From Shigella phage CT01: a stretch of DNA of 64,000 nt. Made by a program: the position numbers and the translations under genes. The notes beneath the pieces are model-generated. The model had not been told where the DNA came from. It ran no database searches and worked only from the letters and a program-made list of their open reading frames with translations. Numbering within the stretch: position 1 is the stretch's first letter; each line of letters opens with the position of its first letter. Below, one piece after another: positions 2,296-63,998 of this stretch. Location of the stretch: sequence record OK018184; one strand, 5' to 3'.

Positions 2296-2499
2296 TTAAT
2301 TCATATTGCGTTTAATAACTTCAGCAACTTCTAGTAGTTCATCTTTAGTTGCGGTGTCGGATTGAATTTTATCTCTAATATCCTTAAAGCGGTTTTTAAA
2401 CTCTTCGGCTTCTCCCATATCGAAAAAGCGTTGAATGATTCTATATTCTCGATGAACTGCTTTATCAAAAAGTTCTAAATTTACTTTATATGATTTCAT
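2296..2499 (-). CDS. rIIA.1: small early protein downstream of topoisomerase gene (rIIA.1 position)
   Basis: 67-aa ORF, 11 nt upstream of rIIA start, conserved position. Confidence 0.6.
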
Positions 2500-2519
2500 T
2501 TCAATATCCTCATTTGCCC

Positions 2520-2556
2520 AATTAATTATACCACATCCTTGTGGTAAAGTAAACTA
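2520..2556 (-). promoter_or_regulatory. T4-type early promoter (minus strand)
   Basis: Reverse strand reads GTTTAC-18 nt-TATAAT (plus-strand gtaaac 2549..2554, attata 2525..2530). Confidence 0.6.
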
Positions 2557-3135
2557 CTGGCTCATCCATTCTTTACGAAGGTCAGCATTATCTCCCATGA
2601 GCATTTCAAAAAGCTCTTTCCAGTTCTCAGGAAGTTTAACAACATCATATACTGGGTTTTGAATCATCTCACGATATTCAGATTTTTCCAAAGAGCCAAG
2701 TCCTTTAATATAACGGATGCTATGTTTAGGTAGAGCATCTTTGGCACTCTCATATTCAGCGACTGTATAAAACCATTCTTGTTTTTTACCGACCTGAGCG
2801 ATGATTACAGGAGTTTTGACAAAGCGAATTCTTCCTTGTTCAAACAGTTCTGGCCAATTACTAAAAAATCCGAGCAGAGAAGGATAAATGCTTCCTAGAC
2901 CATCATGGTCAGCATCAGTCATAATAGCAATATTATGATAATTCAAGTTTTCAGCTTTTTCACCGAGAACTAATCCAGTGATTGCGCAAATATCAAACAG
3001 TTCTTTGTTTTTAAGCATGTCAGCATATGACATGCCCCAACTGTTGAGAACTTTACCACGTAATGGATAACCACCGTGAAGTTCTTTATCACGAACATCA
3101 ATAAGATATCCGATAGCCGAATCACCCTCAGTCAA
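2554..3135 (-). CDS. 60: DNA topoisomerase II large subunit, C-terminal fragment (T4 gp60-equivalent region), separated from the N-terminal part by the insertion
   Basis: 193-aa ORF with ...IMTDADHDGLGSIYPSLLGFFSNWPELFEQGRIRFVKTPVIIAQVGKK... matching T4 gp60; DHDG codons are contiguous (no 50-nt bypass gap); begins at an internal Met inside repeat copy 1. Confidence 0.75.
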   Translation of the reverse strand: MTEGDSAIGYLIDVRDKELHGGYPLRGKVLNSWGMSYADMLKNKELFDICAITGLVLGEKAENLNYHNIAIMTDADHDGLGSIYPSLLGFFSNWPELFEQGRIRFVKTPVIIAQVGKKQEWFYTVAEYESAKDALPKHSIRYIKGLGSLEKSEYREMIQNPVYDVVKLPENWKELFEMLMGDNADLRKEWMSQ

Positions 3136-3871: not shown

Positions 3872-5419
3872 TCAGCAATGCACATTAATTGATTTTAAAA
3901 AATTACTAAAAAATCCGAGCAGAGAAGGATAAATGCTTCCTAGACCATCATGGTCAGCATCAGTCATAATAGCAATATTATGATAATTCAAGTTTTCAGC
4001 TTTTTCACCGAGAACTAATCCAGTGATTGCGCAAATATCAAACAGTTCTTTGTTTTTAAGCATGTCAGCATATGACATGCCCCAACTGTTGAGAACTTTA
4101 CCACGTAATGGATAACCACCGTGAAGTTCTTTATCACGAACATCAATAAGATATCCGATAGCCGAATCACCCTCAGTCAAGAAAAGAGTAGTATCAGCAT
4201 CTTTACCACAAAGATTCGCTTTAATATGTTTATGAACCTTAGCTTTAGAAGCCTTTTTAGCTGCTTTAGTTTCTGCTGCTTTTTCTGCCGCTAATTTACG
4301 AGCCAAAGCAGCTTCAATAATCGGCATTAGAATTGCTTCATTATTTAGAATAGCACGTGAAATCTTTTTAGCATCAAGTTGAATATGACTACGGATTTCA
4401 CCAAATGGAGAAGTCAAACGCTCTTTAGTTTGAGAATCAAATCGCATGTTTTTCATATCACGGACAAACATAACGATAGTCAAACATTCTTTAACGCGTG
4501 CTTTAGTCACATCAATTTTGAACTTACGTTTGATTTGTGGAATAAGGTCTTCACAAATATCATCCATAACACAGTCAATGTGATGGCCACCATTCTTAGT
4601 GTGAATGTTATTCACATAAGTTAATTGACGAAAACCATCCGGTGAACGACCAACCGCAATAGAGCAATTTTCTTGTTCTTGAACGATAGCATGCTCATCA
4701 TATTGGCGTGCATATTTCTTAAAATTACCCTGAACCTTTTTACCATTAAAGGTAAATTGAATATCAGGATAAACTACTGCAAGTGTCTGGAGACGATCTA
4801 GTGTAATGTCAAGATAAACTTGAGATAGCTCATTAGTTTCAAATGACATAAAATCAGGAATGAAAGTAACGCGAGTTCCTTTCCATTTTCCAGGAATATC
4901 TTCCCATGATTTATTTTCCATGCCGTTTGAACAACGAACCACAATATTATTTTGACCGTCGCCAGTTTCACCGACAAACATCACAGAAAAAATGTTAGTT
5001 AAACTAGAACCAACACCGTTCATACCGCCAGTGACGCGTTCTTTATCATCACCAAAGTTACCACCTGCTTTTGGAATAGTCCATGCAGCAACTGGACCAG
5101 GAATTTCTTCACCAGTAGGTGTTTTAACCATCGCCTGTGGAATACCACGACCGTTATCTTCAACTGTTACTTGATTGTTTTTGATAGTAACATTAATTTT
5201 ATTTGCGAATTTAAACTTAGTACGAATACCTTCATCTACCGAGTTATCGATAATTTCATCAATAAGCTTAACAAGACCAGGTACATACTGAACACTTTCC
5301 CATTTACCAAACAGAAAGCGCTCATGCATTTCATTAGCTGAAGAGCCAATGTACATGCCGCTACGCTTTTTGATATGTTCAATATCGCTCAGAATTTTAA
5401 TTTCATTCTTAATCATCAC
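3872..5419 (-). CDS. 39: DNA topoisomerase II large subunit (gp39), N-terminal 515-aa product truncated by the insertion (ends ...SLLGFFSN-FLKSINVHC)
   Basis: GyrB-like ATPase and TOPRIM sequence; the last 8 codons are read from junction sequence. Confidence 0.85.
   Translation of the reverse strand: MMIKNEIKILSDIEHIKKRSGMYIGSSANEMHERFLFGKWESVQYVPGLVKLIDEIIDNSVDEGIRTKFKFANKINVTIKNNQVTVEDNGRGIPQAMVKTPTGEEIPGPVAAWTIPKAGGNFGDDKERVTGGMNGVGSSLTNIFSVMFVGETGDGQNNIVVRCSNGMENKSWEDIPGKWKGTRVTFIPDFMSFETNELSQVYLDITLDRLQTLAVVYPDIQFTFNGKKVQGNFKKYARQYDEHAIVQEQENCSIAVGRSPDGFRQLTYVNNIHTKNGGHHIDCVMDDICEDLIPQIKRKFKIDVTKARVKECLTIVMFVRDMKNMRFDSQTKERLTSPFGEIRSHIQLDAKKISRAILNNEAILMPIIEAALARKLAAEKAAETKAAKKASKAKVHKHIKANLCGKDADTTLFLTEGDSAIGYLIDVRDKELHGGYPLRGKVLNSWGMSYADMLKNKELFDICAITGLVLGEKAENLNYHNIAIMTDADHDGLGSIYPSLLGFFSNFLKSINVHC
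3901..4272. repeat. direct repeat copy 2 (372 bp, identical to 2856..3227)
   Basis: Exact identity read from sequence. Confidence 0.9.
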
Positions 5420-17977: not shown

Positions 17978-18143
17978 TTACTCTTCTTTTTCTTTAGATT
18001 CCTCTTTTTTCTTTTTAGGAATCTGTTCAGGACCTTTATTTACTACAGCGCCTGATGTTGTTCCAGTGGAGATATTTTCAGGATTACCACCTGAATCTCC
18101 AGCTACCATATCTTCTTTGATAAATTCTTTATATGTTTTCATA
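17978..18143 (-). CDS. small acidic/basic protein (61.1 position)
   Basis: 54-aa ORF MKTYKEFIKEDMVAGDSGGNPEN... translated by hand; below the ORF-track size cutoff. Confidence 0.45.
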
Positions 18144-61421: not shown

Positions 61422-61751
61422 TCAATTAGAAAATAAATTTATCCAAGATTGCTCTTTAATTAAAAATGGCTCAGAATCATATGCCATTAAACTTTGGGTG
61501 ATTAGTCCTTTAAAAGGTCCATCAATAAATTCCATGGCAAAATATGGAATTTTATTCATTAATCTTGCATTAGGAGCAGTGCACAAAACTCTGCATCCTT
61601 TGAATACGCCTTTTTGTAATTTGTATTGCTTAGGATAAAATTCGCTCAAGACGTTGTTATTTGCCAAAATTTCAAAATGATTCACCAATTTATTTTTAAT
61701 AGTTTTTGGCGAAAAATAAAGATATTCGAAAAGTTGCGTGTCTGTCATCAT
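61422..61751 (-). CDS. hypothetical protein
   Basis: Track ORF 61422..61802; start chosen at the ATGA overlap with the upstream gene. Confidence 0.4.
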
Positions 61752-62287
61752 TGCATTCCGATTATGAAAAACTGTGGACGAGTAATACCACCAATGCAGC
61801 ATTTACTATTGCAACAGTGGTGCACAGTTTCAATATGAATATCGTAAATTTTATCCATATCAGGAGATTTAACAGGCTCATCGATTATATACAAAATCCG
61901 CGAAAGCGATAAACCTCTGAACTTGCTTCCTTTATTACCGATAAAACTACGGACAGAATCGGTAAATAAGCGGAATCGAATATCATCGCTAGAATAACGA
62001 GAAAACTCTTTTTTAATGTGGCCCGCAGAAATTTTAGCGTAAGCTGAAGTATTAGAAAGAACAATAACTGTTCCACCATCATACAGCCAATTAGCGGCAA
62101 AATTAGTTACTGCAGTTGATTTACCAGATTGACGTCCACCATCTAGTCGAAGTGTGCAATACTGTTTGAGTAAGTCTTCAAATGGTGGGATATAATCGTT
62201 TTTACAAATTTCTTCTACTCTAGCATCAGAATGGTGTGTAAAAGCATTCATCAGGGATAGATAAGGTCCAGTTAAAAATGTTCTCAT
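61748..62287 (-). CDS. P-loop NTPase
   Basis: Walker A GGRQSGKST; track ORF 61748..62335 trimmed to the first ATG (MRTFLTG). Confidence 0.5.
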   Translation of the reverse strand: MRTFLTGPYLSLMNAFTHHSDARVEEICKNDYIPPFEDLLKQYCTLRLDGGRQSGKSTAVTNFAANWLYDGGTVIVLSNTSAYAKISAGHIKKEFSRYSSDDIRFRLFTDSVRSFIGNKGSKFRGLSLSRILYIIDEPVKSPDMDKIYDIHIETVHHCCNSKCCIGGITRPQFFIIGMQ

Positions 62288-62464
62288 TTTATTCTCTCTA
62301 AATTTGGGCCATTCCATGGCGCATGAATTGTCCATTTCTGTATTTACCCATTACCGCACTTGGGCTCGACCTTATTACAGGTTGGCGGGAATCCCTCACA
62401 GAATCATGAGGTCCAGCTTGTTCCCATGTTATTTGAATGTAAATAGGCCTAAGTATAGGCCTTA

Positions 62465-63046
62465 TTAATTACCACGGGCTGCATTAGCAACGGCATAAGC
62501 GTACTGAACATTAGCGTCCTTAAACGTACCTTTAGAGGTATCTATTTCTGCCTTAAAGCCGCCTTTAGCCATAACATCGGCAAATTCTTTACGGAAAGCC
62601 ATTGCATCAAGACCTTTCCATGATGATTTGTGCTTGGCGAATTCAAGACCAGCGTAGTTGACAGCCTTAGCTAATTTATTATCAATGACCCATTTACCGG
62701 CTTTAGGCACAAACTTCGGGCCTTTTTGTTTAGAGAACAGTTTTAAATTCCAGCGACGAAGATCACTGTCGGCTTTAACAAAAGCTGCATCTAAGTTACT
62801 AGCAACAACATCTTCAATATGAGCAAATTTAAGTCCATCAACTTCAATATTTAGATCGTTACGCCAGCGAAGTCCTTCCCAAGCGAAGGCTTTAAAATCA
62901 GAAGCTTTTGTGGCTAGATATCGTTCAAGTGGAGCAGTTTTAGGGTCAAAACCGTTTCCGCCACGATAAGTCCACTCATCTTTATTAATGCCTTTGGCCT
63001 TTACTACAGAAGCTTCAGCAATAAATTCTTGATACGTTTTGAACAT
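62465..63046 (-). CDS. internal head protein (IPIII-like, capsid-targeting N-terminus)
   Basis: 193 aa starting [12 protein letters not shown], resembling the T4 internal-protein targeting sequence [11 protein letters not shown]; the ATG is created at the denV junction. Confidence 0.6.
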
Positions 63047-63146
63047 GTTTACGGACTGCACCAAATACGCGTGGTAATTCACGATACTCTGCCATAAGAT
63101 GTTGGTCGGTCAGTTCAGAAACAAGTGTTAAATTGATACGAGTCAT
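63015..63146 (-). pseudogene. denV: denV (endonuclease V) 5' remnant: 35 codons, then frameshifted into the IP gene
   Basis: [35 protein letters not shown] matches the recalled T4 EndoV N-terminus; followed by QNVSRIYC-stop. Confidence 0.65.
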
Positions 63147-63169
63147 AATTTCCTCCAAGTAGTTGATGA

Positions 63170-63204
63170 ATGTATAGTATCAAAGTCCTTGGAGGAAGTA
63201 AACA

Positions 63205-63206
<2 letters not shown>
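63170..63206 (-). promoter_or_regulatory. T4-type early promoter upstream of the denV remnant
   Basis: Reverse strand GTTTAC (gtaaac 63198..63203) ... TACTATACA. Confidence 0.5.

Positions 63207-63998
<792 letters not shown>

Follow-up and report, generated by a model that had tools for sequence, protein, structure and literature searches.

The denV gene of Shigella phage CT01 survives as a 43-codon remnant. Very probably, a private and recent deletion between two copies of the hexamer AAAACG cost the phage its DenV and left the neighboring internal-protein gene, ipIII, with an ATG recruited from within denV itself, from which it would be poorly translated. This account is drawn from a 64-kb stretch of the phage genome (hereafter, the window), in which all the relevant features lie on the minus strand. 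The window is Tequatrovirus DNA; its best match among 50,697 phage records was about 97% identical over 24 kb, and none was identical. Locally, the closest relative is Shigella phage SF2-1, and we modelled the ancestor of the locus on this phage, which is 99.2% identical to the window in this region and about 97% identical across 24 kb. From upstream to downstream, the locus contains the following features:

63992, minus strand: late-promoter motif TATAAATA, the sole copy in the region by motif scan, just upstream of e
63483..63971, minus strand: e (lysozyme) gene, the upstream context of the locus, 95% identical to T4 e
63205..63486, minus strand: IP93, an intact 93-aa internal-protein-like gene that directly precedes denV in this lineage; its product is identical (100%) to the "internal head protein" of SF2-1
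63174..63203, minus strand: early-type promoter-like motif GTTTAC-N18-TACTAT upstream of denV, retained, from a scan for the T4 early-type pattern
63152..63156, minus strand: denV Shine-Dalgarno sequence (SD) GGAGG, 5 nt upstream of the ATG, with an anti-SD duplex of -9.3 kcal/mol, identical to SF2-1
63015..63146, minus strand: denV remnant ORF (pseudogene), 43 aa, comprising 37 native codons, then VSRIYC and TGA
63044..63046, minus strand: putative recruited ATG of ipIII, within denV codons His34-Val35 (cATGtt), in the ipIII frame and adding Phe2
63035..63040, minus strand: AAAACG, the one copy of the 6-bp direct repeat left at the junction, from breakpoint mapping and exact reconstruction
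62465..63046, minus strand: ipIII ORF, 193 aa, by homology to T4 IPIII and SF2-1 IPIII
62445..62462, minus strand: terminator-like hairpin AGGCCTATACTTAGGCCT directly after the ipIII stop, the right boundary of the internal-protein (IP) array, before the vs.8-like gene

Reading from its ATG at 63146 to its stop at 63015, the remnant contains 37 native and six foreign codons. Of residues 1-35, 34 are shared with T4 endonuclease V, and residues 1-37 are identical to DenV of SF2-1. Compared with PDB 2END, the remnant gave E=1.5e-18 over residues 1-41, of which residues 1-37 are the native part, and the Pfam profile PF03013 matched at 29.7 bits (cutoff 23), covering profile positions 1-36 of 81. 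These matches bear out the homology to the N-terminus of T4 endonuclease V that a first-pass annotation, made from the sequence alone, had proposed. That annotation counted 35 denV codons followed by eight others; the total of 43 and the DenV homology stand, but the identity to SF2-1 moves the boundary to 37 plus six.

T4 endonuclease V is a pyrimidine-dimer DNA glycosylase with AP-lyase activity that protects the phage from UV. The N-terminal catalytic and DNA-binding residues of the enzyme are Thr2, Arg3, Arg22, Glu23, and Arg26. All five are present in the remnant, which we attribute to the recency of the deletion; the stub shows no decay relative to SF2-1, whereas R3, R22, and R26 are replaced in the denV stub of phage ESCO47. 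Set beside T4 denV (PDB 2END/1VAS; PF03013), the remnant shares the N-terminal residues and the early-type promoter and SD context, but only 27% of the T4 protein is left and everything beyond residue 37 is missing. The remnant lacks a complete catalytic domain (about 137-138 aa), with six unrelated residues and then a stop following residue 37, and 100 of the 137 residues of SF2-1 DenV are lost. Among them is the C-terminal aromatic segment WYKYY (residues 128-132), which is found in both SF2-1 and T4 DenV and has gone from the window with the deleted segment.

The denV remnant is therefore described here as a gene remnant, or pseudogene, and not as a member of the PF03013 family in the functional sense. 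Judged from the sequence, DenV is almost certainly inactive. Since DenV would be non-functional, the phage is expected to be about as UV-sensitive as T4 v-minus or T2. The expected phenotype is the same as that of the classical T4 v-minus mutants, but the lesion here is a 639-bp deletion running into the next genes and not a point mutation. A full-length denV elsewhere in the genome had been named by the first-pass annotation as the finding that would speak against this loss. A tblastn search found no second copy in the 64-kb window, and a second denV in the remaining ~100 kb of the ~168-kb genome is unlikely, because the 1,119 phage records that carry DenV hold just 1,123 places for it.

The extent of the lesion emerged from comparison with related phages. 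Every close relative aligned to the locus in at least two pieces, which spanned about 2,340 bp against 1,701 bp in the window query. In SF2-1, the annotated order is e, internal head protein, endonuclease V, small internal head protein, and internal virion protein. We placed the breakpoints by direct string comparison with SF2-1; a MAFFT pairwise alignment placed the gap wrongly. Both breakpoints fall within a shared hexamer, AAAACG, which occurs at positions 2461 and 3100 of SF2-1 and as one copy in the window (63040..63035), where it forms part of denV codons 36-38 and of ipIII codons 2-3. Deleting positions 2461-3099 (639 bp) from SF2-1 in silico reproduced window positions 63220..62440 at 781 of 781 bases, and across 3,001 nt the SF2-1 sequence so deleted differed from the window by 13 substitutions and no other indel. 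The locus thus has the features by which a microhomology deletion is recognized, namely two repeat copies in the relative, one at the junction, and colinear flanks.

The deleted segment held denV codons 38-137 (SF2-1), the whole of a small internal-protein gene bearing a capsid targeting sequence (CTS), and the expression signals of ipIII: its early-type promoter GTTTACGCTTAAGTATTAATATGATATAAT, its ribosome-binding site AAGGAAA, and its ATG. A deletion that took the rest of denV and the original IP start had been proposed by the first-pass annotation, and the exact reconstruction from SF2-1 confirms it. The loss goes further than was described, however, in that it also includes the small CTS-bearing IP gene and the ipIII promoter and SD.

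We propose that the ancestor carried the order e - IP93 - denV - small IP - ipIII - vs.8, as SF2-1 and many other Tequatroviruses do, and that 639 bp would have been lost through microhomology-mediated slippage or illegitimate recombination between two AAAACG hexamers, the first at denV codons 36-38 and the second at ipIII codons 2-3. This route is favored because one copy of the 6-bp repeat is retained and the flanks are perfectly colinear. Past codon 37, the reading of denV runs out of frame and stops six codons on, and the ATG of denV codons 34-35, which by chance lies in the ipIII frame, would become the new start of ipIII.

Three other origins of the junction were weighed against this deletion. 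An artefact of assembly or sequencing, or a deletion acquired during laboratory propagation of the stock, is unlikely. The junction is indeed unique among the public collections searched, and the zero divergence of its flanks from SF2-1 points to a very recent event, but a clean loss of 639 bp with a 6-bp direct repeat at its edges is what biological deletion leaves behind, the repeat is far too short for assembly collapse, and an analogous event in phage ECO07P2 and many denV stubs are found in independent assemblies. A deletion of laboratory origin would look no different from a natural one in these data. Far less probable is a cassette exchange by homologous recombination in the conserved promoter/RBS/CTS module, a process that Repoila et al. 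(1994; cited in PMC12373910) reportedly proposed for shuffling in the hyperplastic IP locus. The right breakpoint at CTS codons 2-3, the extreme cassette variation among relatives, and the differing order in T4 (e-ipIII-ipII-denV) would agree with such an exchange; the left breakpoint, however, lies inside the denV coding sequence (codons 36-38), where there is no CTS or promoter module, the shared identity is just 6 bp, and the product is what a simple colinear deletion makes of an SF2-1-like array, without any insertion. The first-pass annotation had suggested a natural T2-type v-minus allele, shared with T2, and this we find hardly credible. The deposited T2 genome is denV-less and T2 is UV-sensitive by textbook accounts, but this T2 sequence has no stub, carries ipIV in the locus, and shows zero denV similarity genome-wide. 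Moreover, no record reached 99% identity or more over 24 kb although both T2 records were in the collection, so the window is not T2, and the junction was found in none of the INPHARED phages.

The loci of T2 and T6 are built differently. The T2 record LC348380 has ipIV and then a vs.8-like gene after e, and tblastn and blastn searches detected no denV similarity across 163,825 bp (best protein E=4.6). In T6 (AP018814), e lies directly beside regB, separated from it by ~60 bp (L022 951..1013), and at this e locus the IP genes, denV, and the vs.3-vs.8 block of T4 and the window are all absent. T2 and T6 are classically the more UV-sensitive among the T-even phages, and the absence of denV from their loci fits the classical UV sensitivity of T2. 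All three (T2, T6, and the window) are without a functional denV at the e-proximal locus, but T2 and T6 have neither stub nor ipIII gene and represent different, much older structures. As far as the sequences indicate, the denV-null state of T2 is a complete absence, unrelated to the truncation in the window. In the comparison with T4, T2, and T6 that the first-pass annotation had called for, the homology of DenV and IPIII to T4 held and the junction structure of T2 and T6 differs. In the T2 record (LC348380; L004 7002..7973), a "nudE" CDS at 63001..63972 overlaps the whole e CDS (63001..63495) and shares its end, which looks like an annotation error.

With the AAAACG deletion as the preferred origin, the question turns to its effect on ipIII. 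The sequence cATGTTCAAAACG holds the ATG at 63046..63044 that opens the 193-aa ipIII ORF, which ends at 62465. The encoded IPIII is 94.3% identical to T4 IPIII over 192 aa (tblastn) and 99.5% identical to SF2-1 IPIII, and the ORF itself has zero nucleotide differences from SF2-1 ipIII. Its N-terminus reads MFKTYQEF, with one extra Phe after Met1; T4 IPII and IPIII share the same N-terminal start without that residue. The junction does, as had been noticed at first pass, recreate an in-frame ATG with one extra Phe relative to these T4 proteins. The KTYQEFIAE↓A core of the CTS is intact and is moved one position from the N-terminus by Phe2. Overall, the window version is like T4 Ip3 along its full length (94%) and retains both KTYQEFIAE, the core of the CTS, and the site cleaved by gp21, but it differs in having Phe2, in lacking a promoter, SD, and ATG of its own (all of which lay within the deleted 639 bp), and in starting out of frame within the denV remnant. 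The ipIII ATG sits inside the remnant ORF in another frame, with the remnant's stop codon 29 nt downstream. The two are overlapping ORFs and do not form a protein fusion, contrary to the earlier description of denV as fused to the internal-protein gene. Programmed frameshifting joining the remnant to ipIII was also considered and set aside, as inspection by eye found no obvious slippery heptamer in the overlap.

Within the 10-residue CTS, targeting depends on positions 4 and 7 and processing on positions 8 and 10, and T4 lacking IPIII gives a burst of ~40% of normal (PMC9026906). Packed into the capsid, cleaved by gp21, and injected, Ip3 inhibits a specific GmrSD type IV restriction enzyme, GmrSD(ECOR17) (PMC12373910). 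The ancestor's well-spaced AAGGAAA is gone, and the new ATG has no properly spaced SD, with just a GGTG at a distance of 12 nt on its 5' side. Structure prediction puts this ATG in an A-rich loop that is unpaired, and the surrounding region shows no significant folding (z=0.16). The retained GTTTAC-N18-TACTAT motif is now the promoter closest to ipIII as well as to the denV remnant. Modules of this type also precede denV or IP genes in SF2-1, ESCO47, and T2, and the motif fell below threshold in a generic sigma-70 scan; from its sequence, we infer that it is and functions as an early promoter. Terminator and motif scans revealed no terminator-like site between the e late promoter and ipIII. 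Transcription of ipIII would accordingly be expected to persist, driven by the early-type promoter of denV and by transcripts that start at the e late promoter and read through. Its translation would be poor and would rely on SD-independent initiation at the unstructured A-rich start. As an alternative route, ribosomes terminating on the denV remnant 29 nt downstream could reinitiate, and Adhin and van Duin are said to have reported, in 1990, post-termination reinitiation within a range that covers this distance. Any IPIII produced would have its CTS residues at unchanged distances from one another and from the gp21 site (IAE↓A), so that the mature IPIII* would be normal.

We consider it probable that some IPIII is made, at a reduced level, and less probable that ipIII is effectively null; the phage would be compatible with viability in either case, since IPIII-minus T4 still gives a ~40% burst. 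A triple null, in which denV, the small IP, and effectively ipIII are all inactivated because an SD-less ATG inside a well-translated out-of-frame ORF is little used, is a serious possibility that stops short of being the expected outcome. The new ATG has no properly spaced SD, the ipIII promoter and RBS are deleted, and the loss could be borne, IPIII being dispensable at the cost of that reduced burst (PMC9026906). The intact ipIII ORF is uninformative on this point because the deletion is too recent for decay. Against complete inactivation, the ATG lies in an unstructured A-rich stretch, transcription should persist, and the stop of the remnant falls 29 nt downstream, reportedly within the range of reinitiation. 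The opposite reading, that ipIII was not killed, is possible but doubtful. Here the regenerated ATG would be used, either SD-independently or by termination-reinitiation with the strongly translated 43-codon remnant as leader, and the propeptide would still target and process IPIII. If this were true, the locus would represent a natural regeneration of a gene start by microhomology deletion, as well as a natural test in which the capsid targeting sequence of T4 works despite an N-terminal insertion.

The choice of repeat bears on the same point. In an SF2-1-type array, 73 maximal direct repeats of at least 6 bp have one copy in denV and the other in the stretch that extends to ipIII +60. Three of these 73 pairs regenerate an ATG beside the CTS core, and of the three, AAAACG alone leaves KTYQEFIAE whole. 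That the core was kept by one of the 73 repeat pairs could hint at selection for the anti-GmrSD Ip3 while denV was being lost.

Deletions of the direct-repeat type recur at this locus, as an independent event in the Escherichia phage ECO07P2 (OP172785) matches another of the repeat pairs. ECO07P2 has the same ancestral array and likewise a short-direct-repeat deletion, which begins within denV, takes out the small IP gene, and stops short of the promoter of the next IP gene. The 626 bp lost lie between copies of TTTAACA, one of the 73 pairs, and the event was reproduced in silico. Unlike the window, ECO07P2 retains just eight denV codons, and its next IP gene keeps its own promoter, SD, and ATG. 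Phages ESCO47 (OM386662) and TU01 (MZ560701) carry 42-aa DenV stubs that break at codon 36-37, nearly as in the window. These stubs, however, sit at the T4-type position of denV, belong to another sequence lineage, and are partly decayed, with a right junction (...AKIFTFK*) that is joined to sequence before vs.8; in TU01, the stub coexists with a full-length denV. Further losses were seen in metagenomic phages. One has only denV codons 1-3 and 102-137 left, and another has a denV with a 1-nt deletion near codon 15. A stub search of 5.8 billion proteins yielded 22 short DenV N-terminal products with assorted breakpoints, none of which had the tail found in the window.

The breakpoints of independent DenV truncations cluster around codon 36-37, where the sequence is A-rich (GCAAA(C/T)GG / CAAAACGG). 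The ESCO47 stub (L007 2501..2629) and the TU01 stub (L015 4642..4770) both end in ...VAKIFTFK*, and protein P0004 looks like a frameshift at codon 36-37 of DenV. The stretch at denV codons 36-37, which includes the AAAACG of the window, may be a local slippage hotspot. In two other phages, a second, C-terminal denV fragment (residues 118-137, 70% identity) was observed at L014 ~4449..4508 and L017 ~4790..4849. In both phages, the 93-aa IP gene is followed directly by a full-length denV, and the fragment lies near the end of the IP array, in the place that denV occupies in T4. Since these fragments and the N-terminal stub of TU01 sit at the T4-type denV place, they suggest that denV has occupied two alternative slots in the locus.

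We searched for the CT01 allele itself in several large collections. Patterns of 42, 27, and 21 nt covering the exact junction were absent from INPHARED, IMG/VR, GTDB (one genome per species), and the JGI metagenomes, and the three exact products that the junction could yield (43, 193, and 205 aa) were all missing from 153 billion gene positions. The allele looks private and recent, because neither its junction nor its products are on record and the remnant is undecayed relative to SF2-1. Among the DenV phage records, 1,091 of 1,119 keep at least 80% of the gene. The kind of event is nonetheless common, and the allele is one more in the hyperplastic internal-protein locus of T-even phages: ten loci with an identical 93-aa IP were followed by many different downstream arrays. 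The exact IP93 protein was present in 1153 blocks of the assembly collection. A Pfam search recognized none of IPIII, the 93-aa IP, and the small IP.

Two further observations were made in the window. A 54-aa ORF at 17978..18142 (minus strand), directly upstream of a primase (gene 61-like) ORF, begins with MKTYKEFIKE; nothing else in the window exactly fits a degenerate pattern for CTS starts (chance expectation 0). Going by this N-terminus, the ORF may encode a further small protein targeted to the capsid, away from the two classical IP loci. Downstream of the IP array, the vs.8-like gene (61751..62399, minus strand) is split relative to the 219-aa vs.8 of T4, with residues 1-32 and 26-219 in different frames, leaving a 195-aa ORF that starts at 62335. 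T2 and several relatives have the same arrangement (179-195-aa genes), so the split is either a feature of the lineage or T4 is the exception, and it has no link to the deletion.

For annotation, denV of Shigella phage CT01 should be recorded as a pseudogene. For the phage, one small internal protein is lost and UV sensitivity is predicted; Ip3 may be under-produced, which could narrow the host range on strains with the GmrSD type IV enzyme. The allele raises no new question and settles no long-standing one. It does provide a base-exact example of how repeats of 6-7 bp reshape the hyperplastic internal-protein locus and, together with T2, T6, ECO07P2, ESCO47, and several metagenomic stubs, it shows that denV has been lost repeatedly in T-even phages.
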